Source: an uncultured Methanobrevibacter sp.
GTDB lineage: Archaea; Methanobacteriota; Methanobacteria; Methanobacteriales; Methanobacteriaceae
DNA length: 32,000 nucleotides
Direction of reading: 5' to 3'
Assembly: GCF_900314695.1 (NCBI RefSeq)
Contig: NZ_OMWD01000007.1
Coordinates: forward strand, 12,641 to 44,640
Part shown: positions 15,002 through 31,485 of the stretch, one piece after another
Numbering within the stretch: the first letter of the stretch is position 1
Layout: every line of letters starts with the position of its first letter
The notes under the pieces: model-generated
Databases searched by the model: none
The model's input: only the letters and a program-made list of their open reading frames with translations
Told to the model about the DNA's origin: nothing
Position numbers and translations under genes: made by a program

Positions 15002-15907
15002 ATGGCGCATGATGTTTTTATTAGTTATTCAACAAAAAATACAGAATATGCAGATGCGGTCTGTAAAAAACTAGAAGATAATGGTATTGAATGTTGGATT
15101 GCACCGAGGAATATTAAAACTGGTACCAATTATGCCAAAGAGATTATGGACGGTTTGAAATTATCCAAACTGGTTGTTTTGATTTTTTCTAAAGACGCGC
15201 AGGAATCTGAATATGTCAACAATGAAATCGATACTGCTTTTTCGAAAAACGGTCAACCTATTGTTGCATTGAAAGTTGATGATTCATTTCCTGAAAAACA
15301 AATGGAATTCTTTTTGAAAAATTCCCAATGGTTGGATGCATCTCCTACTGCACTTAAAAAAGAAAACAAAACACTTGACAGTTGTTATGACCAATTAGTT
15401 GGTGATGTTCAACGCATATTGGATGGAAAAACTCCAGTTTCAGATTCTGGCGGTGTTGGAAACATTGTTATACCTGGCAAGGAAAAAGGATTTTTTGATA
15501 AATATAAATGGCCTATTGTAATTGCGGTTATTCTTTTGATTGCTGTTGGAGGGTTTTTGGCTTATAGTAATATGAACGGTCAATCAGGCAACGGGTCAAA
15601 TGAAACTGGAATGTCTATAGGGTATATTGGTTTGGAAAAATATGGTGATGCCTACACTTATTTTGTATTTGGAGATATTGCTGAAGGATTCAGCAACTCA
15701 TCTAGTGATGTGATTCATATTGATTATTATGACAATTCTGGAAAAGTTGTCAAAAGCAGCAATACTAAAATTGGTGATGTTGACGGTAATATTTTAGGTT
15801 CTGTTGACGTAAACAAAAAGGATATAGTTAAAGTTTCAGCACAATTGCAGAATAAGGACAAAAAGGTATTGTATAGTGTAGAAAGTGATAATATTATAGA
15901 ACAGTAG
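15002..15907 (+). CDS. TIR domain - TM helix - small extracellular domain protein (paralogue 1)
   Basis: HDVFISYSTKN...GIECWIAPRNIKTG.NY..EI...LKLSKLVVLIFSKDAQESEYVNNEIDTA...PIVALKVDD is a TIR_2-type domain that includes the conserved Glu (NNEID). The TM helix is KW-PIVIAVILLIAVGGFLAY (aa 170-188) with Lys-rich residues on its N side. The C-terminal ~110 aa carry a VIHIDYYDNSGKVV (FxLYD-like) motif. A GGTGA SD precedes the ATG. Confidence 0.85.
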   Translation: MAHDVFISYSTKNTEYADAVCKKLEDNGIECWIAPRNIKTGTNYAKEIMDGLKLSKLVVLIFSKDAQESEYVNNEIDTAFSKNGQPIVALKVDDSFPEKQMEFFLKNSQWLDASPTALKKENKTLDSCYDQLVGDVQRILDGKTPVSDSGGVGNIVIPGKEKGFFDKYKWPIVIAVILLIAVGGFLAYSNMNGQSGNGSNETGMSIGYIGLEKYGDAYTYFVFGDIAEGFSNSSSDVIHIDYYDNSGKVVKSSNTKIGDVDGNILGSVDVNKKDIVKVSAQLQNKDKKVLYSVESDNIIEQ

Positions 15908-15918
15908 TGGGGTTTATT

Positions 15919-16794
15919 ATGGCTGATGAGGTATATATCTGTTATGATGAACGGGACTTGGAAATGGCAAAAAAGGTTTGTGACACTTTAGAGGACAATG
16001 GATTGGATTGCTGGTTGAAAAACCGTGACACCGGCGCAAAACACATGGTTGATGAAATCATGAATGCAATCAAAAAATCCAAAGTTATGGTTTTGTTATA
16101 TTCACAAAACTCCAAGGATTCCAATTTTGTTAACAATGAGGTGGATATTGCATTCGCAGAAAAAAGATCAATTTTGGTCTTTCAAATTGATGATTCAAAA
16201 TTGGACGGCAGTTTAGAATTCTTCTTGAGGAATAAACCTAGGATTCAAGCTTATCCAAATCCTGAAGATAGATTTGACCGTTTGGTTCAAAACACTTCAA
16301 AACTTGTAAAAGAACAGTCAGCAATCGACAGGAACATTGGTAATGTTATTAAAAATCATAAAGTTCCAGTAATTATTGGAATTGTAGTTATTTTGCTTGT
16401 TGTAGGTGTTTTAGGATATATGATGTATAATGGAGGAAGTGGCACAACGAATGCCACTCAAATAAAAGCAGGTGATATTAAGCTCAATATCACAGATTTC
16501 CATGTGGATGATGTCAGAAAGGAAAAAACTAACTGGAACTACTCTTATTATGTGGGTGGAAAAATTTCTCCAGCACCTGGTGATCAGGATGGGTGCGTGA
16601 TTGTCGTTGATTTCTATGATGAATCAGGTAAACTGGTTGAAACAACAGAAACTCCATTTAAAGATGCTCAAAAGGTTAGTTCTGGATTTTTACTAGGATC
16701 TGCAACATCTGATAAGAACAATATTAAACTTGCAGATGCCCAATTGGTTAATAAGGAGAATATTATTATTGCTCAGGATGAAGCGCAATTATGA
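15919..16794 (+). CDS. TIR domain - TM helix - small extracellular domain protein (paralogue 2)
   Basis: EVYICYDERD...GLDCWLKNRD...KKSKVMVLLYSQNSKDSNFVNNEVDIA...ILVFQIDD. The TM helix is VPVIIGIVVILLVVGVLGYMMY. The C-terminal domain has VIVVDFYDESGKLV. An alternative GTG start at 15907 would overlap the upstream stop (TAGTG). Confidence 0.85.
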   Translation: MADEVYICYDERDLEMAKKVCDTLEDNGLDCWLKNRDTGAKHMVDEIMNAIKKSKVMVLLYSQNSKDSNFVNNEVDIAFAEKRSILVFQIDDSKLDGSLEFFLRNKPRIQAYPNPEDRFDRLVQNTSKLVKEQSAIDRNIGNVIKNHKVPVIIGIVVILLVVGVLGYMMYNGGSGTTNATQIKAGDIKLNITDFHVDDVRKEKTNWNYSYYVGGKISPAPGDQDGCVIVVDFYDESGKLVETTETPFKDAQKVSSGFLLGSATSDKNNIKLADAQLVNKENIIIAQDEAQL

Positions 16795-16818
16795 TTTTTG
16801 TTAAGGGTGATGATTATT

Positions 16819-17598
16819 ATGGATAAAAAATATATTCTAATAATTCTTTTGATTGCAGTGATTGCCGTGGTTGGAGGTTATTTCCTATTGAATGGAAACA
16901 ATATTCAAACTGTATCCGGCGAACAAACTACAATTGTTTTAAGTAAATCAGCATATATGGAAGTTCCTAAAGATTCAAATGCTACATCCAATGCTGATAA
17001 AAAGGGAATTTTCTATTATAAGGATAAAGATGATAATATAAACATTACTAGTTGTTCCAATTTGTCCGCTTCATCAAGTGTTAAGGAAATGAAGAAACTT
17101 AAGAATTCAGTTTCAACCGGAGCCAAGAAAATGGTTGAAAACGATGTGGTTGTGTATGAAAAGGATGGTATATACTCAGTATTCGCTAAAAATACTCAGT
17201 ATAATGATACCTTATTGATACAATCATCTGATAAAAACGTTTTATTGGCATGTTGGAATAGTGTTAAATACCACGATCCAACCGATAAAATTAAGTTTAA
17301 CGGTACTGCAGGCGATAATGGATCTGGTTCTGTAGTTAATGCTATCGAGCAAACTCAAAGTGCTGTTCAGGCTAGTGAATCTTCTTCTAGTTCTTACAGT
17401 GAGTCATCATCTTCCAGTTCCTCATCCGATTCATCTTATGATTATTCAGGTTCTGGTAGTGGAGGTTACAGTGACTTTGGTTTTGACACTGGTTCATCCA
17501 GTTCAGGTTCCAGTTCTAGTGGATCCAGCGGCGGGGGTTACAGTGACTTTGGTTTCGGATACTTTGGTTACTATAGAGATTTAGGATTTATCCTTTAA
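16819..17598 (+). CDS. signal-anchored extracellular protein with a Ser/Gly-rich tail and GGYSDFGF repeats
   Basis: N-terminal TM helix (YILIILLIAVIAVVGGYFL), a ~150-aa soluble domain, then SESSSSSYSESSSSSSSSDSSYDYSGSGSGGYSDFGFDTGSSSSGSSSSGSSGGGYSDFGFGYFGYY. A GGTGA SD lies 8 nt before the ATG at 16819. Alternative starts are at 16798 and 16810. Confidence 0.65.
   Translation: MDKKYILIILLIAVIAVVGGYFLLNGNNIQTVSGEQTTIVLSKSAYMEVPKDSNATSNADKKGIFYYKDKDDNINITSCSNLSASSSVKEMKKLKNSVSTGAKKMVENDVVVYEKDGIYSVFAKNTQYNDTLLIQSSDKNVLLACWNSVKYHDPTDKIKFNGTAGDNGSGSVVNAIEQTQSAVQASESSSSSYSESSSSSSSSDSSYDYSGSGSGGYSDFGFDTGSSSSGSSSSGSSGGGYSDFGFGYFGYYRDLGFIL
17464..17555 (+). repeat. 20-nt direct repeat ggttacagtgactttggttt (17464..17483 and 17536..17555) within a low-complexity Ser/Gly coding tract
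   Basis: Read directly from the sequence. It encodes the duplicated GYSDFGF peptide. Confidence 0.8.
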
Positions 17599-17815
17599 TC
17601 TCTTTTTTTCTATTTTCATGTACATGGGTATTTTAACAATTTTTCTTTTTATGGTTCATCATGTTTTTTCAGTAAGTAATGGTCAATTAAACTGATGGTT
17701 TTGTGCTTTTTTTCATTTTAATTAATGACTTCTTTACAAATATTTGACTTTTCAAGTGGCACTGAATATCGTTTTTCTTAATTAAAGCATTTGCTTTACA
17801 TTAGAATTTAAAATA

Positions 17816-17825
17816 TTTATATATA
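17816..17825 (+). promoter_or_regulatory. TATA-box-like element (TTTATATATA) upstream of the HD-RyR gene pair
   Basis: It lies about 77 nt upstream of the ATG at 17902, inside a 303-bp non-coding spacer. TATA-like strings are common in this AT-rich DNA, so specificity is low. Confidence 0.25.
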
Positions 17826-17901
17826 CTAATTGATTCCATATTTAAACATATAAAAATTAAATCAATGGGTAACTAGAAAATTGATATGATTAGGTGTTAG
17901 C

Positions 17902-20157
17902 ATGGGTGAAAGTAATTTAAGACAATATATTGATGATTTTTTTGATGAATTAATCCTCTATGATGATTATTACAATGGCCATTACTATAAAATGCTGTTA
18001 AAAACAGGAATTGATGTTTTTCTAGATAATGAGAATTCATATACTGCCTATGAAATTTATAGGACATTTTTCATGATTTATCAGATCTCACATGAAAACA
18101 AATCTGAAAAACATTCTCCTAACGAAATAAAAATCGTTAAAGAGAAAAATATCCTTTTGGATTTGGTTAAGACAATGAAAGATTATGAAGAAAATACTGG
18201 AGATTTGATTGAAAAGCAAAGGGACCATTTTATTCACTCTGTAAATGTTTTTCTATTAGGATTGGCAATTTATTCTCAAAATAAAAGTTATAGGGATAAA
18301 TTCAAACAGTATGTTCTTAATAGTCCTTATAAAAAATATTATAGGATTGACGGCGAATTTTCTCATGAGGAATTTTTATACCGTTGGGGTGTAGCAGCCC
18401 TTTTCCATGACATAGGTTATCCTGTTGAAATTATTGGAAAACAATTAAAAAAATTTATCAATGATGGAATTAAATCTATTTCAAGTAGCTACAATGCCGA
18501 TACTGCAATTGATTTTAAAGATTTCAATGAATTTAACACAATCGTTAAAAAGGATCCTAATTTTGCAGACAAATACACTTCCGTTTATCCTGAAGCAAAA
18601 TTTTTAAACTTATTTAAACCTACTGACATCATGGCCCATAAGATTTCTACTGATTTTAAGGGAATTGATGTTAATCAGGTAATCAAACACCTTGACTCCT
18701 TTGTTGACATCATGGGGGACAGCGGTTTTATCGACCACGGGTTCTTTTCATCAATTTTGGTTTTAAATTCCTACGGGTATCTGATTCAAAAATATGCTAA
18801 AAACAATGATTTCTTCTTTTATCCGATAGTTGACAGTGCTACAGCTATTCTGTTGCACAACTATTATAGAAATGTTTTGCAAAAAAAGCCTTTTGATTTA
18901 AAAACTTTGCATCCGTCTCAATCTCCATTGGCGTTCCTGCTGATTTTATGTGATGAGCTTCAGGAATGGAACAGACAGCCTTTTGGTGTTAAAGACAAGC
19001 AAAGAAGCCATGTAAATGAATTGGTTATAAATATTGATGACAGGGGAATGGATGTGGAATATATTGTTAGGGAAGGTGCAATGGGACTCGGCTTTTCTGA
19101 AGATAAAGAGGAATTCCTTAAAACAGTCTTATCATTAAGAAGCATTTTCAAATTTGGTTTGAGAATAATCACCGATGTTTCACAGGATAACATTATTAGG
19201 GAAAATGTTCACTCAGAAGCTCAAGCGCCGGATATCCTGCTTAGAAATGTTGAAACCATTGCTATTCAAATTCACAATCAGTATGTGGAAACCACCAAAC
19301 AGCAATATGAAGAAAAGCTTGCACTGGGTGAAGAAATTGATGATGAATTCATGGAAAAATACAATAACCTGACTACATTTGATGAGTTAACTCCACAGCT
19401 TAAAATAGCAAACATTAGACAGGCAAGGTCAATCCCAAATAAATTGGATATCATCGGCTGTGAAATTGCATCTAATGATGATGAAAGAGATGCAATTTTA
19501 AGATTCTCTAAAGATGAAATTTTGGATTTGGCTATTCTGGAGCATCAGGAATGGTGTGATGAAAAAATAGGTACTGGTTGGACTTTGGGTGAAAAAGATG
19601 TTGAGAATCTCGTTACTCCTTATCTTGTTCCATGGGATGAGTTGACAGAGGATATTCAACAGTATGATATTGACCCTATTAAGAACATTATTCCGCTTAT
19701 GGATTCTTTAGGGTTGAAGGTTGTAAGAACTAAAGAGAGGCTTTTAACATTTGAAATGCATAATTTTTACTCAGAATATAACAAGAGTGCCGGTCATTTC
19801 GATGATTTGCCAAGCTATATTAAATATTCCAACTATAAACAGACTGATTTCCTTTTAAGAATCTTGTCTGAGTTGGGTTATGATGTAATTGATATTGAAG
19901 ATGCTGGTGAGACAGTAATGTCATTTGATGAGGATTCAATTGAATATTTAGCTAAAAGGGAACATAATGAGTGGTATAAACTTAAAGTTAACTTGGGATG
20001 GACATATGATGCAGTCAAAGATGATGTGGCAAAAACCAACCCTAATTTAGTGGAATGGGATCAGCTTGACCATGAAACCAAGGAGCTGAACAGACGCACA
20101 TTCAGAAACCTCCCTCAATTATGTGGAAATGTTGGCTTGAAAATTGTTAAAAATTAG
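17902..20157 (+). CDS. HD-domain phosphohydrolase fused to four RyR (ryanodine-receptor-type) repeats, paralogue 1
   Basis: HD motifs: RDHFIHSVNV (H109/H112), AALFHDIGYP (H169-D170), IDHGFFSS (H279), AILLHNYY (H319) and LILCDELQEWNR (D351). Canonical RyR-type repeats: LAILEHQEWCDEKIGTGWTLGEKD...TPYLVPWDELTEDIQQYDIDPIKNI...LGLKVV, and LAKREHNEWYKLKVNLGWTYDAV...NPNLVEWDQLDHETKELNRRTFRNL...VGLKIV. Each is preceded by a divergent repeat (IAIQIHNQY...FDELTPQLKIANIRQARSIPNKLDIIGCEI, and LTFEMHNFY...FDDLPSYIKYSNYKQTDFLLRILSELGYDV). An AGGTG SD is present. Confidence 0.8.
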   Translation: MGESNLRQYIDDFFDELILYDDYYNGHYYKMLLKTGIDVFLDNENSYTAYEIYRTFFMIYQISHENKSEKHSPNEIKIVKEKNILLDLVKTMKDYEENTGDLIEKQRDHFIHSVNVFLLGLAIYSQNKSYRDKFKQYVLNSPYKKYYRIDGEFSHEEFLYRWGVAALFHDIGYPVEIIGKQLKKFINDGIKSISSSYNADTAIDFKDFNEFNTIVKKDPNFADKYTSVYPEAKFLNLFKPTDIMAHKISTDFKGIDVNQVIKHLDSFVDIMGDSGFIDHGFFSSILVLNSYGYLIQKYAKNNDFFFYPIVDSATAILLHNYYRNVLQKKPFDLKTLHPSQSPLAFLLILCDELQEWNRQPFGVKDKQRSHVNELVINIDDRGMDVEYIVREGAMGLGFSEDKEEFLKTVLSLRSIFKFGLRIITDVSQDNIIRENVHSEAQAPDILLRNVETIAIQIHNQYVETTKQQYEEKLALGEEIDDEFMEKYNNLTTFDELTPQLKIANIRQARSIPNKLDIIGCEIASNDDERDAILRFSKDEILDLAILEHQEWCDEKIGTGWTLGEKDVENLVTPYLVPWDELTEDIQQYDIDPIKNIIPLMDSLGLKVVRTKERLLTFEMHNFYSEYNKSAGHFDDLPSYIKYSNYKQTDFLLRILSELGYDVIDIEDAGETVMSFDEDSIEYLAKREHNEWYKLKVNLGWTYDAVKDDVAKTNPNLVEWDQLDHETKELNRRTFRNLPQLCGNVGLKIVKN

Positions 20158-20171
20158 TGTCGGTGGAAATT

Positions 20172-22535
20172 ATGGATAATGGGGGAAGTTCTACTAATAT
20201 CGGCAAGTATGTTGATAAGTTCTTTGACATGCTGGTTTTATACGATGATAATCTGGTATTTAAGGACGGTACAAAAAGCAATCATGACTATAAAGGCCTT
20301 CTAAAAGCAGCAATTGATGTATTTTTAAACCATCAATCCAACTATACTGCTTATGAGGTCTATCAAACTTTTTTCATGATGTATCAAATCACTCCTGAAG
20401 ACAAAAGTGAAATCGATGAAAAAAGCCCTGACGTTTTGATTAGTGAACCCAATTATCTTCTTGATTTGGTAGACATAATGAGAAAGTATGAGGAAAATAC
20501 TGGTGAATTGATAAACTGGCAAAGGGACCATTTCATCCACTCAGTCAATGTTTTCATATTGGGTTTAGCAGTATATGCTCAAAATCAATCTTACAGAGCC
20601 ATATTTCAAAATTATATTCTTAAAAATAAGCATTATAAAAAATATTATCGGATTGATGGCAATTTTTCTCATGAGGAATTCCTATATCGATGGGGTGTAG
20701 CAGCGCTGTTTCATGATATAGGCTATCCATTTGAAATAATAGGAAAACAGCTGGATAAGTTAATCGAAGATGGGATAAAAAACATTTCCCATAGCTATGA
20801 CAATGTCAAGATGGGTCTTGATTTTAGGGATTTCGATGAATTTAATGTAATTGCCAAGCTGGATCCGTTTGATTATGCAGACCAATACCGTGAAAGATAT
20901 TCAGATTCTAAAGTTCTAGACTTATTTAAGCCTACAGATATTATGGCTCATAAGCTCAAATTGGACTTTGGATTTGACAATGAAGTATATAAAAAGTTAA
21001 TCAAACATCTCAACGGTTTTCCCAGATTCATGACTGAAAGGGATTTTGTTGACCATGGATTTTTCTCAGCTATCTTGGTTTTGAATTCCTATGGAAAACT
21101 GATACAGAAATATGCAAAAAAGGATAAGGATTTCTTTTTCTATCCTATTGTAGATAGTGCTACTGCAATCCTGCTTCATAATTATTACAGTAATGCCCTA
21201 CAAAAGCCACCCTTTAATTTTGGCAAGCTAAGGCCTAAACAGTCTCCAATTTCTTATTTGTTAATTTTATGCGATGAGCTTCAGGAATGGAACAGACAGC
21301 CATATGGCGTTTTGGATGTAAAGGAAAACCATGTAAACGATTTGGATGTTGTCATTGATGATGAATACATGAAGGTTATCTATATTTTAAATAATGGGCC
21401 TATGGGTTTTGGATTTTCCAAAAAGAAGGATGATGTGATTGATAATGTCTTGGAGATTCAGGATATTTTCCTTGGTAAATTATCCATCAGAACAAAAATT
21501 GAATTGGATAATGTTATAAGGGACATTTCCATTGCTGAAATTCAAACTCCCAATATTTTACTAAGAAATGTTGAAAAATTGGCCAGGCAAATCAATGATG
21601 AGTACAATGAGGAATTGAAAGCCAAACTGGATGAAGCCATTAAAAAAGGTGATGAAAAGGAAATTGAAGAATATAAAGAAAAATGTTCATATTTATGTGA
21701 TTTTGAAGATTTAAGTGCCGATTATAAAATTTCCAATATTCGTCAGGCAAAATCAATTCCAAAGAAATTGAGCATGATAGGATGCGAAATTGCACACATT
21801 GATGATGAAAGGGACGAAATCACCAAATTTGATGAAAAGGAGATTGAGGATTTGGCGATATTTGAGCATGTTGACTGGTGCAGGGAAAGAAAAGGTACCG
21901 GATGGTCTTATGGTGATGTAAAAAATCCTGAAGAGCGCAGAACACCTTATCTTGTCTCATGGGAAAAGCTTCCTGATGATATAAAGGATATGGATCGAAA
22001 AGCAACTGAAAATATTCCAAATCTTTTAAATTCAATTGGTCTGAAAGTCGTTAGAAATAAAATCAGATTGCTTACCTTTAAAATGCATCAGTTTTATGAA
22101 ACAGGCAGTTTGGATGATAAGTCAGATGGTGAAAAAAGATTTAAGGAATTGCCGAAGCATGTTCAGTATTCCAATTATAAGCAAGCCGATTATCTGGTTA
22201 AAATTTTAAAGGAAAAAGGATTTGAATTGGTTTCTCTAAATGATTCAAGGGATAAAATTCATAGATTTGATGAAGAGGATATTGAATATTTCGCCAAAAG
22301 GGAACATGAAGGGTGGTTAAAACTTAAACTTAATTTAGGTTATGCACATCTTCCGATTGACGAATCAGATATTCAAAAAATAGAAGAAGGTATTCGAGAG
22401 TCCCATAATCCAAATCTTGTTTCCTGGAAAGACCTTGATATAAATGTTAAAAAGGCAAATAAGGATACTTTCATCAATCTTCCGAAATTATGTGAAGACC
22501 CGAATGTAGCTTTAAAAATTGTCAGAAGGCAGTAA
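20172..22535 (+). CDS. HD-domain phosphohydrolase fused to four RyR-type repeats, paralogue 2
   Basis: Same architecture and motifs: RDHFIHSVNV, AALFHDIGYP, VDHGFFSA, AILLHNYY, LILCDELQEWNR, LAIFEHVDWCRERKGTGWSYGDV...TPYLVSWEKLPDDIKDMDRKATENI...IGLKVV, and FAKREHEGWLKLKLNLGYAH...NPNLVSWKDLDINVKKANKDTFINL. A GGTGGA SD precedes the ATG at 20172. An alternative GTG at 20157 overlaps the upstream stop (TAGTG). A 29-nt string (gatgagcttcaggaatggaacagacagcc) is identical in both paralogues. Confidence 0.8.
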   Translation: MDNGGSSTNIGKYVDKFFDMLVLYDDNLVFKDGTKSNHDYKGLLKAAIDVFLNHQSNYTAYEVYQTFFMMYQITPEDKSEIDEKSPDVLISEPNYLLDLVDIMRKYEENTGELINWQRDHFIHSVNVFILGLAVYAQNQSYRAIFQNYILKNKHYKKYYRIDGNFSHEEFLYRWGVAALFHDIGYPFEIIGKQLDKLIEDGIKNISHSYDNVKMGLDFRDFDEFNVIAKLDPFDYADQYRERYSDSKVLDLFKPTDIMAHKLKLDFGFDNEVYKKLIKHLNGFPRFMTERDFVDHGFFSAILVLNSYGKLIQKYAKKDKDFFFYPIVDSATAILLHNYYSNALQKPPFNFGKLRPKQSPISYLLILCDELQEWNRQPYGVLDVKENHVNDLDVVIDDEYMKVIYILNNGPMGFGFSKKKDDVIDNVLEIQDIFLGKLSIRTKIELDNVIRDISIAEIQTPNILLRNVEKLARQINDEYNEELKAKLDEAIKKGDEKEIEEYKEKCSYLCDFEDLSADYKISNIRQAKSIPKKLSMIGCEIAHIDDERDEITKFDEKEIEDLAIFEHVDWCRERKGTGWSYGDVKNPEERRTPYLVSWEKLPDDIKDMDRKATENIPNLLNSIGLKVVRNKIRLLTFKMHQFYETGSLDDKSDGEKRFKELPKHVQYSNYKQADYLVKILKEKGFELVSLNDSRDKIHRFDEEDIEYFAKREHEGWLKLKLNLGYAHLPIDESDIQKIEEGIRESHNPNLVSWKDLDINVKKANKDTFINLPKLCEDPNVALKIVRRQ

Positions 22536-22722: not shown

Positions 22723-22869
22723 ATGGCAAGATTTGAAGAAGCAGAAAATAGAATGTTTAATGTAAAAATCTGCTTAAAATGTAATGCTCGTAACCCTGCT
22801 GCTGCAACTACTTGCAGAAAATGTGGTTACAAAGGTTTAAGATTCAAAGCTAAAGAACCGAGAGGATAG
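22723..22869 (+). CDS. rpl40e: 50S ribosomal protein L40e
   Basis: It is not in the ORF track (48 aa). [48 protein letters not shown] has a CxxC...CxxC zinc ribbon typical of archaeal L40e. A strong AGGAGGAG SD lies 8 nt upstream. Confidence 0.85.
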
Positions 22870-22958
22870 ATTCATTCTCTTTTACTTTTTTTTTATTATT
22901 TTTTTAAAACAATTAATTTAATATATTATTTTTTATAAAACTTATTTTAGGTATTCTT

Positions 22959-23765: not shown

Positions 23766-24833
23766 ATGTTAAATTCACTATATGAAAAAGCCATCGCTAA
23801 AAGAGGATTTATACAAGATATTGAGTCAGACAATAATTTGGATGCTCAACTTGAAGTAAACTGGTTTTCAAGAGAATTCAGTGAGAGTTCTGATGATTTT
23901 TCCATCGCTGCGGGAGATGGGAGCTTCAACAAAAAGAAGTTTTTAAAAAGCAACTTCTGTGCTGTAGGTGCCGAATCCATAATTTACGATGGTGAAATAA
24001 AAAAAATCGATGATGCTGATATTTTGGAAGTAAATCATATCTCTTTTTTGGATGAGCTTTTAAGCAGTTATATGTCAATATTGGAACTTAAATGTGCGTC
24101 TAGGGCTATCAAGGAATATGATGTAGATTATTACTTATTCGATGGATCCATTTTAGGAGATTTGGAAAATGCATATCCAAGAGGTGCTGAACTTCCATCC
24201 AAAATCAGAGATAACTTGGATGAAACCATTTTGAATGAATTTAAGAGAAGATTGGAAATAACACCATTTGGATTCGTATTTCCTCAAATTAAAGAAAGAA
24301 TATTGGCTGATGTAAGTGTAAATGAGGAATTTGAGCAAAAGGAAGATTTTGACCTTCATTTGTCTTCAATCGAGAAAATAATATTGTTAAAAGAAATTTT
24401 GGAAAACAAGAAAAAAATCATTTCAATATCCAAAACATCTTCAGACAATGATTTGTTTGGATGGAACATTCCGGACATTTCAATTTTAGATAATTTGACA
24501 GATAAAAAGCAGGGAATATCAAGAATTGAGTATAGGCGAGTCTATAAGAATGCATCTTTCCAGTATTTCAATGATTTTTTCAAACAATTGAAATTTACGG
24601 TATTTTATGTAAGGCTTCAGGACAATAAAAATGTATTGAAAGTTGAATTGCCTTACAAAGCATCGATAAGTGAAGTTGTAGATGTTGTAGAGAAGATAAA
24701 TGTATTGTCAGTTCAAGGTTATCCTTATTTGCTGAGTAAGGCACATAATGATGTAGTCATTACTGACAGGAATATTAAAGAATTATTAAAACTTGCTAAA
24801 ATTTATGAAACAACAAACAGGGAAATGTTATAG
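23766..24833 (+). CDS. nurA: DNA double-strand-break repair nuclease NurA
   Basis: IAAGDGSFNKK (catalytic Asp motif), YYLFDGSILGDL and a C-terminal GYPYLLSKAHNDVVI. It sits immediately upstream of herA. Confidence 0.8.
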   Translation: MLNSLYEKAIAKRGFIQDIESDNNLDAQLEVNWFSREFSESSDDFSIAAGDGSFNKKKFLKSNFCAVGAESIIYDGEIKKIDDADILEVNHISFLDELLSSYMSILELKCASRAIKEYDVDYYLFDGSILGDLENAYPRGAELPSKIRDNLDETILNEFKRRLEITPFGFVFPQIKERILADVSVNEEFEQKEDFDLHLSSIEKIILLKEILENKKKIISISKTSSDNDLFGWNIPDISILDNLTDKKQGISRIEYRRVYKNASFQYFNDFFKQLKFTVFYVRLQDNKNVLKVELPYKASISEVVDVVEKINVLSVQGYPYLLSKAHNDVVITDRNIKELLKLAKIYETTNREML

Positions 24834-24842
24834 GTGGTTTAG

Positions 24843-26342
24843 ATGGTAGTTGGAATTTGTGTTGGCGAAACATCACTTTCAGAAGTTACTTTCATTTCAG
24901 ATAAGATGCCGAAAGTTGGAGAATATGTGACTATTGAATACGATGGAAAAAAAGTATTGGGAATGATTGAAAATCTAATTAGAGGTAATGATGCTTTAAA
25001 TGTTGATATCAACGATTTCAAAGCCATTCGAAAGATTTCACAAATAGGTGCTGAGGATAACTATATTCGAGGTAAAGTAAAGATTCTTGGAGATGTCAAT
25101 GATAATCTGAAATTGCCGAGAACCCCTGTGCTTCCTGGAACTGAAATAAAGCTGGCTGACAGGGATACTTTAAATGAAATATTCAAGGTTAACAATCCCA
25201 TTAAATTAGGATGTCTTGTAAATCAGAGTGATGTGGACGTTAATGTTGAAGCAAACCCAATTTTGTCAAGACACCTTGCAATTTTAGCAATGACTGGAGC
25301 TGGAAAATCAAATACTGTATCTGTTTTAATAAATGAAATGTTAAGTTATTTTGTTCCGGTATTCGTATTTGATATGCATGGTGAGTATGTTGGAGCCAAT
25401 TTCCCAAATGGTGAAGTTAATGTTATTAAACCTAAAATAAATCCTGTTTACATGTCTTTTCATGAGATAAAAAGATTGGTTAACATTCCGAGTAATGGTT
25501 ATATTCAGGAAAGACATTTCAGAAGAGCATTTAAGACAGCTAAGGAAATGGTTCGCAGTGGAACAGCACATACAAATAACTTTTTACAAATTATTTATGA
25601 TATTCTATTAAGCGATTCTCAAGAAGAGGGCTCAGACAAGCAAATTGTTGATGTAATGAATAAGATTGACGATTCGATGGATAAGTATGCCAATATCTTT
25701 GACAATAACATTGGAAATATATTGACAAACATTAAAATAGGTCATGTTAATGTTTTGGACTTAAGCCAGTCTGACGAATCAATTGCAAATGTATTGGTAA
25801 GTCATATTATGAGAAATGCTTTGCAAATGAGAAAAAATGCAGTTCATGGAAAAGATGAAAGAGCATTGGATTTTCCAGTATTTTTCATATTGGAGGAGGC
25901 ACATATATTGGCTCCTAATAAACGTGATTCAGATTCAAAACGTTGGATTCAAAGGGTTGCTAGAGAAGGACGTAAATTCGGATTGGGATTATGTTTGGTA
26001 AGTCAGTCTCCAAAAACAGTTGACCATGATGCATTGTCCCAAATGAATAATATGATTATTTTGAGGCTTGTTGAACCTGAAGACCAAAGGCATGTTCAGT
26101 CTGCAAGTGAAAGTTTATCACAGGATTTGGTTAATCAGCTTCCATCCTTAAATGTTGGTGAAGCTGTTGTTTTAGGTTTGATGAGCAAAGTACCAACTCT
26201 TGTCAAAATTGATGAATTTAAAGGTCGTCTTCATGGGGATGACATGGATATTGTTTCCTATTTTGCTGATATCAGGCAGAAAGAACAAGAAGAAATTGAA
26301 GAGTTGGAAAAAGAAAGCATGGAAATGGGTTATAATTATTAA
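24843..26342 (+). CDS. herA: DNA double-strand-break repair helicase HerA
   Basis: N-terminal HAS-barrel-like region, Walker A LAMTGAGKSNTV, Walker B FFILEEAHILAP and REGRKFGLGLCLVSQSP. An AGGTGG SD is present. Confidence 0.9.
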   Translation: MVVGICVGETSLSEVTFISDKMPKVGEYVTIEYDGKKVLGMIENLIRGNDALNVDINDFKAIRKISQIGAEDNYIRGKVKILGDVNDNLKLPRTPVLPGTEIKLADRDTLNEIFKVNNPIKLGCLVNQSDVDVNVEANPILSRHLAILAMTGAGKSNTVSVLINEMLSYFVPVFVFDMHGEYVGANFPNGEVNVIKPKINPVYMSFHEIKRLVNIPSNGYIQERHFRRAFKTAKEMVRSGTAHTNNFLQIIYDILLSDSQEEGSDKQIVDVMNKIDDSMDKYANIFDNNIGNILTNIKIGHVNVLDLSQSDESIANVLVSHIMRNALQMRKNAVHGKDERALDFPVFFILEEAHILAPNKRDSDSKRWIQRVAREGRKFGLGLCLVSQSPKTVDHDALSQMNNMIILRLVEPEDQRHVQSASESLSQDLVNQLPSLNVGEAVVLGLMSKVPTLVKIDEFKGRLHGDDMDIVSYFADIRQKEQEEIEELEKESMEMGYNY

Positions 26343-26521
26343 TCCTATTTCTTTTTTTTAATTTTAATATTAATTTTTCCTTATAATATTGTATGGACTT
26401 ATTTAGAAACTTATTTATATTAAATTGCTTATATAATTACTTAAAATTAAATATTGGAATTTATTATTTGTTTAAAAGCAATTTTACATATTAATAGCAA
26501 TTTTTCAATATTAAATCAATA

Positions 26522-26929
26522 ATGGGTACAATCATGTTTCAATGGAAAGATTTCAAAACGGTCGGCGATGAATTGATGGCTAATTCGCAGGGAGCATATA
26601 TAAGATGTGCTACAAGCAGATATTATTATTCTATTTTCGGTTCAACAAGAGAATATTTAATCGATATTATGAATAAACATCAATTTTGTAACGGAAAAGA
26701 TATTCATAAAAGAGTATCTGACGAGTTAATTAAGTCTAATGATCCAAATGAGGTAAATTTGGCTGAATGTTTAAAATTTTTAAGGGAAGTTAGAAACCGT
26801 GCTGATTATGATAGATTAAATGAATGTAATACTTTTTTTAAAAATAATTCTGATAAGTTTGTTGATACAACAAATGATGCATTTAATTCATTAAATGTGT
26901 TAATGAATAATCCGCCATATAATTTTTGA
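26522..26929 (+). CDS. HEPN-like domain protein
   Basis: RCATSRYYYSIFGSTREYL (the aisRaYYaxF helix) and LKFLREVRNRADYD (the R-N-x-A-D-Y helix-4 motif) resemble PF05168/SAV_6107-type HEPN domains. There is no canonical Rx4-6H histidine. An alternative start is at 26534. Confidence 0.6.
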   Translation: MGTIMFQWKDFKTVGDELMANSQGAYIRCATSRYYYSIFGSTREYLIDIMNKHQFCNGKDIHKRVSDELIKSNDPNEVNLAECLKFLREVRNRADYDRLNECNTFFKNNSDKFVDTTNDAFNSLNVLMNNPPYNF

Positions 26930-26938
26930 GGTGTTATT

Positions 26939-27331
26939 GTGGATGATTTGGATTTCGTTAAAAAATTAGAAAGTAATGCGGAGTTATTCAACAGAGAATA
27001 TGATAAATTGGGAGAATTTTATAATGTTCGTCATTATGAAAAAATTCATGATTACTTTGTTAAACATAAGGGCCTTATTGTATTATTAAATAAACTTAAA
27101 TCTAGGTTATCTGAAGATTTTCCTACTGGTAAATTTGATTTAGTGCATTATACTGATTATGAATATTCAGATTGGTCTTATATTTTGTTATATATTAAAG
27201 TTGATGATTATACATTTAATAATGGGGTTATGGAAGATATAAAAAAGATTACTTTTGATTTTATTCCATTAAGACGTAAATTAGGTGTAATGTCTGATTT
27301 GTCTTTAAGGCCTGCATTATATGATTGCTAA
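26939..27331 (+). CDS. hypothetical protein, translationally coupled partner of the HEPN-like protein
   Basis: The GTG start is preceded by a GAGGTG SD that overlaps the HEPN gene stop. It is 130 aa, with no family and no MNT-type GSx10-20DxD motif that I can recognise. Confidence 0.5.
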   Translation: MDDLDFVKKLESNAELFNREYDKLGEFYNVRHYEKIHDYFVKHKGLIVLLNKLKSRLSEDFPTGKFDLVHYTDYEYSDWSYILLYIKVDDYTFNNGVMEDIKKITFDFIPLRRKLGVMSDLSLRPALYDC

Positions 27332-27505
27332 TCAAATTTAAGTCATTTATTTTCATTTTCTTTTTAAATTTTAAATTCATTTTACTTTTCAACTGCTCTC
27401 TTTCCAAACTATTAAATATACTATATGATAAAATATTATTCAATTAAATACTTTGATTTAAGTGTTTAAATTGGTTATATACAATTGACAAAAAAAGGTA
27501 ATATA

Positions 27506-28741
27506 ATGAAATTTGCACATTTAGCAGACACTCATTTAGGTTATCGTCAATTTGGTTTAATTGAACGTGAAAAAGACTTTTATGAAGTGTTTGAAAAGGT
27601 TATAGATAAAATAATTGAAGAAAAAGTGGATTTTGTAATCCATAGTGGTGATCTATTTGAAACCGCAAGACCGTCCCCTATTGCACTTTTAACCTTCCAG
27701 AAAGGATTGCTTAAATTAAAAGGTGCTGGAATTCCTATGTATGCAATAGCAGGTAATCATGATATTGTAATGCGTAATGATTCAATCCCGCCTCAAGTAA
27801 TCTTTAAAAAGTTGGGTTTAAAAGTAATCAGTCCTATTAATACTACTTATATGCATGGTGATATTTTTATAGCGGGCTTACCATTTTATCCGTCTTCTCA
27901 AGTTAAGAATTTAAAGTCTAAATTAGCTGATTTATCTAAAAAGGCTGCAAAACATGAAAAATCAATTCTTGTATTGCACCAAGGCATTGATAAATACTTT
28001 GGACAAAATTATGAACTTGAAATCGGAGATTTGCCTGATAATTTTAATTATTATGCTTTGGGACACATTCACAATTATATCAATGATAATTTTGGAAATG
28101 GAAAATTGGTCTATCCGGGTTCTAGCGAAATATGGAAAACTAATGAATTAAAGGACTATAAGGAAAACGGAAAAGGTTTTGTTATAGTTGACTTTGATGG
28201 TCCAAAACCTCTTGTCAAAAGGGTTAAAGTTGATATTTCCCGTACATTCATTGAAAGGTCACTTGATTACAATGAACTTGAAAGTGGAATTGCCGGTTTA
28301 AAAGAAACAATTGTCGGCTTTGATAAAAAACCGATTTTAGATTTGAAAATTAACAATGTCGAATCAGATACCAACAGAGTTTATGAACTGATTAAGGAAG
28401 AGCTTGGTGATTTGTCTTTAATGATAAGACCTACATTCAGCATGCTTGGTGAAGATGACATTGATGTTATAATCAATCAAAAGGATTCTTTAGGTCCTTT
28501 GGAAATTCTAAAAGAGCAATTGGATGCTTATGGTGATGAATCTGTTACCCGATTGGGACTTGACGTTTATACTTTCCTATCAAAGGATAAGATTGATGAA
28601 GCTGATGAAATATTAAATCACTTCTTCGATGATTATTATCATAAAGACGAAGATGAAGAAACTGAAACTGAAGAAGAGGGAGAAGCAGAATCAGCTGATG
28701 AAAAGGATATTCAAGTTACATTTAAGGAGGTTCTAGAATGA
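27506..28741 (+). CDS. mre11: DNA double-strand-break repair nuclease Mre11
   Basis: Phosphoesterase motifs HLADTHLG, HSGDLFE, AGNHD, VLHQG and LGHIH, plus an acidic C-terminal tail. There is an ATGA overlap with rad50. Confidence 0.9.
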   Translation: MKFAHLADTHLGYRQFGLIEREKDFYEVFEKVIDKIIEEKVDFVIHSGDLFETARPSPIALLTFQKGLLKLKGAGIPMYAIAGNHDIVMRNDSIPPQVIFKKLGLKVISPINTTYMHGDIFIAGLPFYPSSQVKNLKSKLADLSKKAAKHEKSILVLHQGIDKYFGQNYELEIGDLPDNFNYYALGHIHNYINDNFGNGKLVYPGSSEIWKTNELKDYKENGKGFVIVDFDGPKPLVKRVKVDISRTFIERSLDYNELESGIAGLKETIVGFDKKPILDLKINNVESDTNRVYELIKEELGDLSLMIRPTFSMLGEDDIDVIINQKDSLGPLEILKEQLDAYGDESVTRLGLDVYTFLSKDKIDEADEILNHFFDDYYHKDEDEETETEEEGEAESADEKDIQVTFKEVLE

Positions 28742-31485
28742 TTTTCACAAAATTAAAACTGGTTAATTTCAAATCCCATGAAAATACTATTATTGACTTT
28801 GAAAAAGGGATTAGTGTTATTGTGGGTGAAAATGGTGCTGGAAAATCCACAATTTTAGAAGCGATTAGTTTTGCTTTATTCAAACAGCATACTGCTAAAA
28901 AAATCGATGATTTGGTAAGAAATAATGCAGATTCAATGACTGTTGAATTGGAATTCAATTCCAATAATCGTGAATATAAGATAGTTCGTAATAAAAAATC
29001 AATGTTAAAATCCTCCATTTACAAAAAAACCTCCAATGATGGTGGTTTTGTTCATATCTGTACTGGAGATAAGGAAGTTGCAAATGAAATTCTCCAGATA
29101 TTGGACATTGATTCTGATTTGTTCCTCAATGCAATTTACATAAGACAAGGTGAAATTGCAGAGCTTGTTGATAAAACATCTGCTGAGAAAAAAGAGCTGA
29201 TTGCTAAATTGCTTGGAATTGATTCCTTGGAAAAAGCCTGGAAAAATTTATTGCCATTCATCAGCGGATATGAAAATCAGTTGGCAGAACTTAAAGGGAA
29301 ACTATTCAATTCTGATGAGTTGAAAGATGAATATTCTAAGAAAAAAGCAGAATTGGAATCTCTTAAGGATAGGGGTCATGAACTTGAAGAACAAATAGAA
29401 GATGTAACTGCCTCCCTGAAGGATATTTCTGAAAGTAAAAGAAATATGGAAAGAGAAAAAGAAATTTATGATACTCAGGTTAATAATCTTGAAAATGAAC
29501 AAAAAACTTTGGCCAAATTAGAAAATGATAAACATGTTGTTCAGGAGAATCTGGATAAAATCAGTGAAGCTGAAGAAAAAATTACCAGATTAGACAAGTA
29601 TGTTTCAAAATTGGAAGTGTATCTTGACTTTGAAAAGTCAGTTACCAGCATTCAAAGATTGAAAAAAGATGAGGAAGAAATCAATAATAAATTAGATTCA
29701 ATATCCAATCAGAAAGCTATTGTTAATGATAAAAAAGAGGAATATAATAAGTTTTTAGCATCCGATGAAGAAATTAACAAATTGAATAATCAAAAACTCA
29801 ATCTTGAAAAGCAATTGGCTACAGCCGCTAAAATGGAAAAGGATAAAAAAGAATTGCTATTGCACATTGAGAATGAAAGAAATGATATTGAAGACTTTTT
29901 CTCAAGAACAAAAGATAAATTGGCTGATTTCGGATTATCACAAGATACCTTGGCAGAGGTTGAACATTTTAATCAAATTGAAGAAGTCACTAATGATTAT
30001 ATTGTTGAAGTTGCAGAAAGCATTGAAAAATTATCCGGTGATATCCTTTCTAAAAAGGAAAGTCTTGTAGAATTTAAGCAAAATATTAAAGCTGCTCAAA
30101 AACCGTTAGAAGAGTTAAATGAAGTTAATAATAAATGTCCGGTTTGTCAATCAGACATCAGTTCAGATCAGAAGAAGGATTTAATCGAAAGTTATGAATC
30201 AACAATCAGTGAAAATGAGAAATTAATTTCTGAAACTGAAGAGGATGTTCGTTTATTTAATCAGAATAAGGAAAGCTTTGAAGATAAACAAACCAAACTT
30301 CAGGAGTTATCTAAAAATATTGTCGAGTATAAACAGAAGTTTGTTCATTTGGAAGATGATGTTGTTAAACTAAATGAAATAGATGAAAATCTTGAGTCAA
30401 AAGAATACATCAGTAATAAATTAGGAGAACTTATACTTGTTATTGCTCGTGAAAGAGATGCTAAAGAAAGTTATAAGGAGTCTTATGATGCATATGTTCA
30501 AGCTAAAGGTGCTTTGGATGTTTTAGGTAGTGAAACTGAATCTCAATATAAATTAAATCAAATTAAAAATGAGATTGACAATCACGTTACTAATATTAAA
30601 TTAGCCATTAATCAGGACCCTCATCTAAGCGGAGACATCAGTCCTGGTGAACTTCAGGATAGAATAGCTGATTTAAAACAGAAAAATGAAGAATTTAATC
30701 AACTTAAGGGTTTTGTTCAAAATAAAAAATCCCTATTGTCTCAACATGATTCTATTAAGGAGGATATTGGCGTATCTAAAAATCAGATTGACATCATTCA
30801 AAATAAAATTGCCGCCTCTCTGTATGATAAGGAGAAATATGAACAAATCATTTATCGCTCAGAGTTATATGAAAGACGTCAAAATACATTTAATTCAGAA
30901 CTTTCTGAAATTAAAGGCAGAGCCCGTGAATCAATAACTTACATTAAAGAGTTAAATGAGAAAATAATAATGGCTGACAAGTTTAAAAGGGAATATGATA
31001 ATTTGGAAAGTTATATTTCCATGTTGAAAAACATTAGGGAATTATATGGTAAAAATGGTGTTCAAAAAGATTTAAGGAATATTTCCAGACCGTTAATTCA
31101 AAAATACACCAAAGAATTCTTTAATGAGTTTAACTTCAATTACTCTGATTTAACTTTGGATGATGAGTATAATGTAACAGTCTATGGTCCTGAAGGTGAA
31201 TCTTCAATGAGCATGGTTAGTGGTGGTGAAAAAATAGCTATTGCCCTAGCTTTAAGACTTGGTATCACTCAAGCAATTTCCAAAGGAGATTTGGATACAA
31301 TATTATTGGATGAGCCTACAATTCATTTGGACAGTTCCAGAAGACATGAATTAATTAATTTATTAAAGGACATGTCTTTATTGCCTCAAATGATTATTGT
31401 AACTCATGAAAGTCAGCTTGAAAATGCAGCTGATAACATAATTAAAGTTGAAAAAGAAAATGGTATTTCAAAAGTTATGATGTAA
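28738..31485 (+). CDS. rad50: DNA double-strand-break repair ATPase Rad50
   Basis: Walker A GENGAGKST, a long coiled coil with the zinc hook CPVC, signature SGGE and Walker B ILLDEPT. Confidence 0.9.
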   Translation: MIFTKLKLVNFKSHENTIIDFEKGISVIVGENGAGKSTILEAISFALFKQHTAKKIDDLVRNNADSMTVELEFNSNNREYKIVRNKKSMLKSSIYKKTSNDGGFVHICTGDKEVANEILQILDIDSDLFLNAIYIRQGEIAELVDKTSAEKKELIAKLLGIDSLEKAWKNLLPFISGYENQLAELKGKLFNSDELKDEYSKKKAELESLKDRGHELEEQIEDVTASLKDISESKRNMEREKEIYDTQVNNLENEQKTLAKLENDKHVVQENLDKISEAEEKITRLDKYVSKLEVYLDFEKSVTSIQRLKKDEEEINNKLDSISNQKAIVNDKKEEYNKFLASDEEINKLNNQKLNLEKQLATAAKMEKDKKELLLHIENERNDIEDFFSRTKDKLADFGLSQDTLAEVEHFNQIEEVTNDYIVEVAESIEKLSGDILSKKESLVEFKQNIKAAQKPLEELNEVNNKCPVCQSDISSDQKKDLIESYESTISENEKLISETEEDVRLFNQNKESFEDKQTKLQELSKNIVEYKQKFVHLEDDVVKLNEIDENLESKEYISNKLGELILVIARERDAKESYKESYDAYVQAKGALDVLGSETESQYKLNQIKNEIDNHVTNIKLAINQDPHLSGDISPGELQDRIADLKQKNEEFNQLKGFVQNKKSLLSQHDSIKEDIGVSKNQIDIIQNKIAASLYDKEKYEQIIYRSELYERRQNTFNSELSEIKGRARESITYIKELNEKIIMADKFKREYDNLESYISMLKNIRELYGKNGVQKDLRNISRPLIQKYTKEFFNEFNFNYSDLTLDDEYNVTVYGPEGESSMSMVSGGEKIAIALALRLGITQAISKGDLDTILLDEPTIHLDSSRRHELINLLKDMSLLPQMIIVTHESQLENAADNIIKVEKENGISKVMM

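Follow-up and report, generated by a model that had tools for sequence, protein, structure and literature searches.

What the repeats of the ryanodine receptor (RyR) do has, to our knowledge, been an open question ever since the channel was cloned, and in a locus of a methanogenic archaeon, two adjacent genes encode proteins with RyR repeats joined to an N-terminal HD-like domain. The locus lies in a stretch of 32,000 nucleotides from an uncultured Methanobrevibacter sp. (assembly GCF_900314695.1, contig NZ_OMWD01000007.1, positions 12,641 to 44,640 of the forward strand; G+C ~31%), which is referred to below as the window. An earlier note, made from the letters of the window, had described the two proteins, here called HD-RyR proteins A and B, as paralogous HD phosphohydrolases whose activity is gated by four RyR-type repeats. 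A RyR-gated enzyme is still favoured here over other readings, and with moderate confidence the locus is read as a Thoeris-like system, in which pairs of RyR repeats would sense an ADP-ribose (ADPR)-derived signal made by neighbouring TIR proteins and would thereby gate the HD hydrolase. The two genes lie on the forward strand and overlap by 1 nt:

17902-20157, forward strand: HD-RyR protein A, an open reading frame (ORF) of 751 amino acids.
20157-22535, forward strand: HD-RyR protein B, an ORF of 792 amino acids, paralogous to A and built from the same domains.

The two ORFs are as the earlier note had described them, and their paralogy is confirmed by BLASTP, in which A and B share 55% identity along their entire length; a second, off-diagonal alignment (E 1e-21) shows an internal duplication of the C-terminal region. 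In this region, the Pfam RyR family (PF02026) is matched by A with 95.3 bits in two stretches and by B with 58.3 bits, both far over the gathering threshold of 27.4 bits, and the PDB sequences matched by the repeats are those of RyR1/2/3 Repeat12 and the Bacteroides thetaiotaomicron 3NRT protein. The region falls into four units, in which a divergent form alternates with a canonical one:

19237-19506, forward strand (amino acids 446-535): A unit 1, divergent (hhalign of unit 1 against unit 2, AlphaFold2 secondary structure and unit alignment).
19507-19746, forward strand (amino acids 536-615): A unit 2, canonical (Pfam RyR and residue mapping).
19747-19932, forward strand (amino acids 616-677): A unit 3, divergent, MHNFY ... 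FDDLPSYIKYSNYKQ (hhalign of unit 1 against unit 3 and secondary structure).
19933-20154, forward strand (amino acids 678-751): A unit 4, canonical (best Pfam RyR stretch, amino acids 678-748, and PDB alignments).
About 21555-21830, 21831-22076, 22077-22268 and 22269-22532, forward strand: units 1 to 4 of B, whose HD core lies at about 20457-21338.

When the units are compared by hhalign, unit 1 matches unit 2 over the whole repeat (72 columns, probability 91%, E 1e-6) and unit 3 with a probability of 98% (E 3e-13), and unit 2 matches unit 4 with a probability of 99.6% (E 3e-24); the direct match of unit 3 to the canonical units is weak (E about 1e-3), and unit 3 is therefore tied to them through unit 1. 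In the AlphaFold2 model of amino acids 440-751 of A (predicted local distance difference test, pLDDT, 89), an element made of long helix, loop, helix, short helix and strand occurs four times, and in Foldseek this model matches crystal structures of human RyR3 Repeat12 (E 7e-8, probability 1.0) and phage RyR proteins (E 5e-4 to 5e-3, probability 1.0). Pfam, hhalign, AlphaFold2 and Foldseek thus all support the two divergent plus canonical pairs proposed in the earlier note, which had named the significance of the RyR profile and the repeat fold as tests beforehand; the profile lies over its threshold and the model is repeat-like. Units 1 and 2, and likewise units 3 and 4, probably pair as modules resembling Repeat12, in keeping with the likeness to the paired repeats of ryanodine receptors that had also been pointed out. 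The divergent plus canonical pair is found family-wide, with one pair in bacterial homologues and two in the Methanobrevibacter proteins.

The earlier note regarded the RyR domains of prokaryotes as lacking an assigned function; this view is outdated, as phage RyR-domain proteins have been described that defeat Thoeris by cleaving its signals, 2'/3' cyclic ADP-ribose (2'/3'cADPR), or by binding them with nanomolar affinity (PMC13232231; 10.64898/2026.06.04.730250; 2026 preprints). In one of these, RyDEP, the ligand is contacted by H75, W78, H100 and D117, of which H75 and D117 form the catalytic dyad of a His/Asp glycosidase, and sponge-type phage RyR proteins retain the Asp without cleaving (PMC13232231); in RyR Tad, the contact residues are H129/W132, K147/H154 and K170/D171 (10.64898/2026.06.04.730250). 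The spacing of the pocket residues of RyDEP and RyR Tad is identical in the canonical units of the family studied here. In unit 2 of A, H548, W551 and D589 correspond to H75, W78 and D117 of RyDEP, with T572 in place of H100; unit 4 keeps the His and Trp and carries Asn at both the H100 and the D117 position, while the divergent unit 1 keeps the His (IHNQY), has Tyr for Trp and lacks the GWxYG loop. Across 243 aligned archaeal and bacterial proteins, the H75, W78 and D117 equivalents in unit 2 are His, Trp and Asp in 100%, and in unit 4 the first two are likewise His and Trp in 100%. The D117 position in unit 4 is Asn in 124 of the 126 archaeal copies aligned, the other 2 being alignment gaps, and the H100 equivalent is H, T or S in unit 2 and Asn in unit 4. 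Since one repeat of each pair is degenerate, a single canonical pocket is expected per pair.

The N-terminal part of A consists of an HD-like core and a small domain that links it to the repeats:

18154-19017, forward strand (amino acids 85-372): predicted HD-like catalytic core of A (alignments A1, A2 and A4, AlphaFold2, and a sub-threshold Pfam HD match).
19018-19191, forward strand (amino acids 373-430): small alpha/beta linker domain of A, from HD core to repeats (AlphaFold2 secondary structure).

Both HD motifs to which the earlier note had drawn attention are present in A, QRDHFIHSVNV at amino acids 105-116 and FHDIGYP at 168-174, as is the insert of about 100 residues that it had placed behind them: the next invariant His, H279, stands 109 amino acids past D170, and the segment between them at 175-275 is variable. 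In alignments that reach down to ~25% identity, H109, H112, H169, D170, D278, H279, H319 and D351 are invariant or nearly so, a pattern that fits the di-metal site of the HD superfamily. This eight-residue signature is intact in 98 of the 101 ORFs of the fetched loci, in 116 of 117 bacterial and in all 120 archaeal proteins, and because it is kept in more than 97% of the non-fused members, the domain seems to be under selection as an enzyme. The AlphaFold2 model of the core (pLDDT 86; predicted template modelling score 0.89) is all-helical; among HD-like folds in Foldseek, the PPX/GppA C-terminal domain (E 0.018, probability 0.8) and phosphodiesterases (E about 1) come nearest. A profile search with alignment A1 returned almost exclusively the same Methanobrevibacter proteins, and Pfam HD (PF01966) gives weak, sub-threshold matches in 7 of 17 diverse cores of the family, the best at E 0.002. 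What had been called an HD phosphohydrolase is therefore retained in a reduced form: the eight invariant His and Asp residues and the consistent PF01966 signal argue for a probable divergent HD-like hydrolase, whereas this signal stays under threshold and no solved relative of the domain is detectable.

Bona fide membership of Pfam HD is not reached, and when the family was compared by hhalign with a genuine HD domain, at the C-terminus of P0219, only the 14-residue FHDIG motif was aligned. The 'HD' matches of P0219 and P0249 in the family census were set aside as separate C-terminal HD domains distinct from the family core. A resemblance to dGTPases and SAMHD1, suggested in the earlier note, finds no support and kinship with them is rejected, as the family profile matches no PDB sequence at E<=10 and no dNTPase is among the Foldseek matches. 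The linker domain is predicted to contain strands at 373-378, 383-389 and 420-426 and a helix at 398-409; in Foldseek it gives local matches to ferredoxin-like C-terminal domains, none of them significant.

The link to TIR signalling had been missed in the earlier note, in which neither the two TIR genes upstream of A nor the adjacency and fusions to TIR across the family were recognized. In the window, the region upstream of A is arranged as follows:

15002-15907, forward strand: TIR-transmembrane-ectodomain protein 1, 301 amino acids (Pfam TIR_2 E 9.6e-22; ThsB_TIR E 7e-7).
15907-16794, forward strand: TIR-transmembrane-ectodomain protein 2, 295 amino acids, paralogue of protein 1 (Pfam TIR_2 E 8.4e-17; ThsB_TIR E 3.8e-7).
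16798-17598, forward strand: third gene of the TIR operon, for a membrane protein of 266 amino acids whose low-complexity tail is rich in Ser (single-pass transmembrane helix at amino acids 13-31).
17599-17901, forward strand: intergenic region of 303 bp (direct reading of the sequence).

Both TIR genes are on the same strand as A, the second of them ending 1.1 kb before it, and their products are ThsB-like in PADLOC, with ThsB/SAVED-TIR matches for protein 1. Protein 1, a putative signal generator, has a cytoplasmic N-terminal TIR domain (amino acids 1-133) with a putative catalytic Glu75, a transmembrane (TM) helix at ~171-189 and a C-terminal outside domain of ~110 amino acids; in protein 2, whose start overlaps the stop of protein 1, the TM helix lies at 147-165 and is again followed by a C-terminal domain of ~110 amino acids, and the catalytic Glu is likewise present. 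The third protein has no significant Pfam match, and its homologue is kept in L004, L005, L007 and L025. An 81-amino-acid ORF at 17339-17584 (forward strand), which overlaps the gene of this membrane protein, is a frame artefact of its Ser/Gly-rich repeat.

At the level of the family, three sources were used. A search with the HD-like domain gave 1223 clusters at E<=1e-3, of which 150 cluster representatives were analysed; more than 537 GTDB species representatives have a relative, of which 77 loci were fetched, 57 with both flanks; and an independent metagenome sample contributed a distant clade ~25% identical to A with 35 fully flanked loci. TIR domains occur in 9 of the 150 cluster representatives, in the architectures TIR-TIR-HD-RyR, TIR-HD-RyR and TIR-HD; the first of these is seen in P0139, P0142, P0150, P0152 and L016 and the second in P0158, while the reverse order, HD-RyR-TIR, is found among bacterial relatives (P0379, P0383, P0397 and L058). 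Within the GTDB loci, a TIR ORF lies at <=10 kb in 27 of 77, and TIR is adjacent or fused in 10 of the 57 with both flanks; of the 35 metagenome loci, 20 (57%) have TIR as a direct neighbour and 28 have it at <=8 kb. In about ten Clostridia and relatives, a TIR-LRR gene stands directly downstream, often with overlapping stop codon and in flanks that are otherwise unrelated. HD-RyR is the sole conserved TIR partner in two-gene operons and so occupies the position of ThsA, the effector. The TIR link is thus real at the family level, being seen in fusions, in genome adjacency and, independently, in metagenome adjacency.

The partner TIR proteins are of the types TIR-LRR, TIR-Sel1/TPR, TIR-WD40 and TIR-TM-LRR/SBP, often in 2-3 copies, and to judge from these LRR, Sel1/TPR, WD40 or extracellular domains they look like sensors. 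Of 42 partner TIR domains, 35 retain the catalytic Glu, as do both TIRs of the window. Proteins in which TIR is followed by one TM helix and an LRR, SBP_bac_5 or unassigned C-terminal domain are encoded in L055, L062, L065, L070, L076, L079 and L080, in L041 and L063, and at 15002-16794 of the window; their topology is like that of Toll-like receptors with the domain order reversed.

Other conserved neighbours also occur. In 15 loci, one of them of Methanobrevibacter, the neighbour of HD-RyR is a protein with several TM helices and a DUF4231 region, of the SLATT superfamily (examples are L051 11907-13499, L062 5453-7045 and L021 9006-9980, with 12 other loci), and a DUF4062-NACHT-WD40 STAND protein is a further one. 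Proteins in which RyR is preceded by other N-terminal domains share operons with HD-RyR and TIR genes in Anaerolineales (L038, L040, L041 and L043) and likewise in L106, L110, L112, L127, L128, L134 and L148; they include TrkA_N...RyR proteins of ~600 amino acids and a 455-amino-acid protein with an unassigned N-terminal domain. The RyR module thus seems to have been exchanged between a number of output domains. In a distant clade of ~760-amino-acid proteins (P0216, P0218, P0220, P0245 and P0258), an extra C-terminal domain of ~190 amino acids with G-x-D...GGT motifs follows the RyR pair; in P0258 this domain gives a weak match to Pfam YAcAr, of the SLOG family (E 0.0034), and it is possibly a second nucleotide-sensor domain.

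Evidence from the TIR fusions in both orders, the adjacency of the genes, the Glu kept in the partners and the binding of 2'/3'cADPR by RyR proteins favours the Thoeris-like reading, as do the hallmarks of nucleotide signalling in the neighbourhood, namely the SLATT proteins, the DUF4062-NACHT-WD40 STAND protein and the weak SLOG-like domain. The same reading is favoured by the TIR and membrane-protein genes directly upstream of A, the ThsA position of HD-RyR in the two-gene operons, the invariant His and Trp of the canonical units, the conserved HD site and the near-absence of the family from phages. In such a system, the two membrane-anchored TIR proteins would, when triggered, convert NAD+ to an ADP-ribose-derived signal, for example a cADPR isomer. 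A and B would serve as soluble receivers, probably acting together and possibly as a hetero-oligomer, in which each divergent plus canonical pair would fold into a Repeat12-like module with one intact His/Trp nucleotide pocket. Ligand in this pocket would switch on the N-terminal HD-like di-metal hydrolase, which would then degrade an essential nucleotide or nucleic-acid substrate and arrest the cell or the virus. That cellular RyR units bind a TIR product is suggested by analogy with the phage proteins; we infer that binding activates the HD domain instead of merely localising it, and both the assignment of the HD substrate and an antiviral role are likewise proposals.

There are several points that weigh against this reading. 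PF01966 reaches 14.4 bits on A (E 0.048), under its gathering threshold of 22 bits; the profile of 17 diverse cores gave nothing among PDB sequences at the E<=10 cut-off mentioned above, and Foldseek with the HD-core model gave no match at E<=1e-3. Among the Methanobrevibacter A/B pairs, TIR lies at <=10 kb only in the window, in L005, L007 and L025, where the same TIR-TM pair is found upstream of HD-RyR, and in the L016 fusion, most having none, and in the closest relative, L004 (85% identical), the TIR pair is absent at the same site. Even within the window, the 303-bp gap with T-runs right after the stop makes co-transcription of the TIR operon and A/B unlikely; the gap also contains an AT-rich TATA-like element at ~17810-17825, and GGTG stands 8 nt before the ATG, features from which the pair probably has its own promoter. 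The N-terminal TIR fusions all have degenerate HD sites with intact RyR units (P0139, P0142, P0144, P0150, P0152, P0158, P0187 and L016 12285-15497, with complete loss in P0144 and P0158), which hints at pseudo-enzyme subunits within hetero-oligomers, while the C-terminal TIR fusions P0379, P0383, P0397 and L058 keep all eight residues. RyR3 Repeat12 binds ATP and ADP (PDB 6UHH and 9L9B, among the Foldseek matches), so that something other than a TIR product may be the ligand. The true effector of multi-gene bacterial clusters could be a SLATT-type protein. Lastly, the classical task of HD domains in second-messenger pathways is to degrade the signal, HD-GYP, PgpH and SpoT being the classic examples among HD enzymes that act on nucleotide messengers, and this favours a different role for the domain.

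In that role, which is the main rival reading but is considered unlikely, HD-RyR would be a brake that captures the TIR-made ADPR-type signal in the RyR pocket and destroys it, so as to reset or threshold the pathway, in analogy to the ring nucleases of type III CRISPR systems. Destruction would be carried out by the HD phosphohydrolase or by a His/Asp glycosidase dyad in unit 2; the real effector would then be the TIR itself, through NAD+ depletion, or a SLATT-type membrane protein. Unit 2 does keep the equivalents of both RyDEP dyad residues (H75 and D117) in 100% of members, but the dyad is not diagnostic, as sponge-type phage RyR proteins keep the Asp without cleavage (PMC13232231), and unit 4 is without Asp in every archaeal member aligned there. 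DUF4231/SLATT genes that flank HD-RyR in the 15 loci could supply the effector, and TIR with SLATT alone is a validated Thoeris type; in the roughly ten operons made up of HD-RyR and TIR-LRR alone, however, such a brake would leave no effector unless the TIR itself kills.

It is improbable that HD-RyR instead regulates or scaffolds the TIR, with RyR sensing ATP, ADP or ADPR and the HD-like domain docking the TIR so as to set NADase firing upstream. The binding of ATP and ADP by RyR3 Repeat12, the N-terminal TIR fusions with their probably inactive HD sites beside intact RyR units, and the A/B pairs and longer arrays, with as many as four paralogues, which suggest hetero-oligomers, would all agree with this, yet a pure scaffold would hardly account for the eight putative metal ligands, which more than 97% of the non-fused members retain. 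Very improbable is a nucleotide-regulated metabolic phosphohydrolase with TIR neighbours by coincidence of variable islands, for although most Methanobrevibacter loci are without a nearby TIR, 14-16 species have an FHA/kinase-Hsp70/phosphatase cluster before the gene instead and HD-only proteins make up ~40% of family representatives, such coincidence does not agree with TIR fusions of either order, seen in archaea as well as bacteria, stop/start overlaps with TIR genes in many unrelated contexts, 57% TIR adjacency in an independent distant clade and RyR domains known to bind TIR products (PMC13232231; 10.64898/2026.06.04.730250). A phage origin or counter-defence role was rejected, as 50,697 phage records gave a single weak HD-like match, and phages thus practically lack the family.

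With respect to the gene pair itself, A is a member of a 100% identical cluster (P0001) of 107 members, and the closest homologues, annotated as Methanobrevibacter, are named in databases solely 'RyR domain-containing protein' or 'hypothetical protein'. A further 13 Methanobrevibacter loci keep the order A then B, and besides such pairs there are arrays with as many as four paralogues, L016 being a four-gene array. Neither A nor B matches any existing defence-system protein model of PADLOC-DB v2 at E<=0.1, nor any NCBIfam model. The GTG start of B (20157) has one base in common with the stop of A, and an in-frame ATG follows five codons on, at 20172, which may be the true start, as starts vary among orthologues. 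The genes also share one identical stretch:

18952-18980, forward strand, identical to 21273-21301 in gene B: 29-nt stretch that encodes DELQEWNRQP round the last conserved Asp (exact-match scan).

This identity, reported in the earlier note, is real and has no special meaning: the two proteins have 41 windows in which 9 or more residues are identical, and identical residues use the same codon in 55% of cases, so that chance alone would give ~0.19 runs of this kind; it was therefore rejected as a functional element or a sign of gene conversion.

The surroundings of the pair were also examined. Downstream of B lie genes for PcrB/GGGP synthase, NurA, HerA, a Mre11-like phosphoesterase and Rad50, and further upstream those for an MFS transporter, a UPF0114 protein and an adhesin-like protein, so that the block is inserted among housekeeping genes on both sides and its position is variable. 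A small ORF at 22725-22870 (forward strand), between B and PcrB and below the cutoff of the ORF list, encodes a zinc-ribbon peptide like ribosomal protein L40e, and 23766-31485 (forward strand) holds a complete archaeal DNA-end-resection cluster of NurA, HerA, two small ORFs, a Mre11-like Metallophos protein and zinc-hook Rad50. In 14-16 other Methanobrevibacter species, HD-RyR is preceded by a run of SIS, FHA, a 1167-amino-acid Ser/Thr-kinase-Hsp70 fusion and a calcineurin-like phosphatase (L009, L011, L012, L016-L020, L022, L023, L026, L028, L030 and L032), a second signalling-type context that may be functional or mere synteny.

In the largest Thoeris survey, eleven types (I-XI) have been validated and 29 predicted, and TIR with SLATT constitutes validated type VII (10.64898/2025.12.03.692087). 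Within the text of this survey and its four supplementary files, one of them covered in part, RyR, PF02026 and PF01966 are unmentioned, and the Thoeris literature searched contains no prior description of TIR with HD-RyR, the search having covered text, so that an earlier mention may exist. While TIR signalling by small molecules is itself known, the new element is a partner that joins a RyR sensor to an HD-like enzyme, which is undescribed in the literature searched.

It is put forward tentatively, with rather less confidence than the reading of the locus itself, that the RyR module is the host-side receptor for TIR-made cyclic ADP-ribose and that HD-RyR and TIR form an unclassified and widespread Thoeris-like pathway of methanogens and of anaerobic members of the Bacillota, Chloroflexota and Actinomycetota; equally tentative is the proposal that its TIR partners are soluble TIR-LRR, TIR-Sel1 or TIR-WD40 proteins or membrane proteins like Toll-like receptors with an outside sensor. 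The family, wired to TIR in two domains of life, supplies the missing host side of the story of RyR and TIR signals, and the repeat pairs are the only plausible regulatory module of this enzyme family. If the proposal is true, the RyR sponges of phages would be captured copies of a host receptor, and the animal link between cADPR and the ryanodine receptor would descend from a prokaryotic signalling pair, which would give an evolutionary rationale for the modulation of these receptors by cADPR. The Thoeris-like reading of the locus, if right, would also add a new combination of sensor and effector to the Thoeris repertoire, extend TIR small-molecule signalling to gut and rumen methanogens, and provide a soluble, easily purified system for ligand specificity and allostery of RyR repeats; in addition, a prokaryotic topology like that of Toll-like receptors, with LRR or SBP outside, one TM helix and TIR inside, may signal across the membrane.

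Compared with known systems, the proteins described here combine features of several. Like the HD superfamily (PF01966; SAMHD1/dGTPase, HD-GYP and the PPX/GppA C-terminal domain), they have the H...HD...D signature plus extra His residues, and their FHDIG(Y/K)P motif aligns with a bona fide HD domain; unlike it, they have ~110 variable residues inserted past the HD motif. With Repeat12 and Repeat34 of eukaryotic ryanodine receptors they share the tandem repeats, two of which probably form one module of two-fold pseudo-symmetry, their best structural matches being RyR3 Repeat12 with ADP/AMP-PCP and dantrolene (E 7e-8), and repeat 2 of human RyR3 has the same Asn/Asn substitutions as unit 4. In contrast to the receptors, one repeat in each pair is degenerate, with Tyr for Trp and no GWxYG loop, and the repeats belong to a soluble enzyme as opposed to an ion channel. 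Phage RyDEP and RyR Tad share with them PF02026 and the fold, the contact His and Trp, and the Asp in unit 2. The phage proteins are small homodimers (~110-280 amino acids) that act against the host as sponges or glycosidase, whereas the HD-RyR repeats form intramolecular divergent plus canonical pairs, are fused to an enzyme and are encoded by the host beside TIR genes.

As in Toll-like receptors and plant TIR-NLRs, the partner proteins join TIR with LRR (or Sel1, TPR or WD40), and some have one TM helix between a cytoplasmic TIR and an outside LRR or SBP domain. They differ from Toll-like receptors in that TIR is at the N terminus, the TIRs of the window have a small ectodomain instead of LRRs, and signalling is proposed to reach an enzyme through a small molecule, where the receptors assemble adaptors. 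In comparison with Thoeris, the proposed sensor is a RyR-repeat pair as opposed to the SLOG, Macro or newer-type sensors, a divergent HD-like hydrolase is proposed as the effector, and LRR, Sel1 or WD40 repeats, or else a membrane anchor and an outside domain, are present in many of the partner TIRs. As in Thoeris, TIR genes with the catalytic Glu stand beside a protein that joins a small-molecule-binding module with an enzymatic one, the effector gene is often first with the TIR gene or genes after it, SLATT and SLOG-like domains occur in the neighbourhoods, and the unit moves between unrelated contexts.

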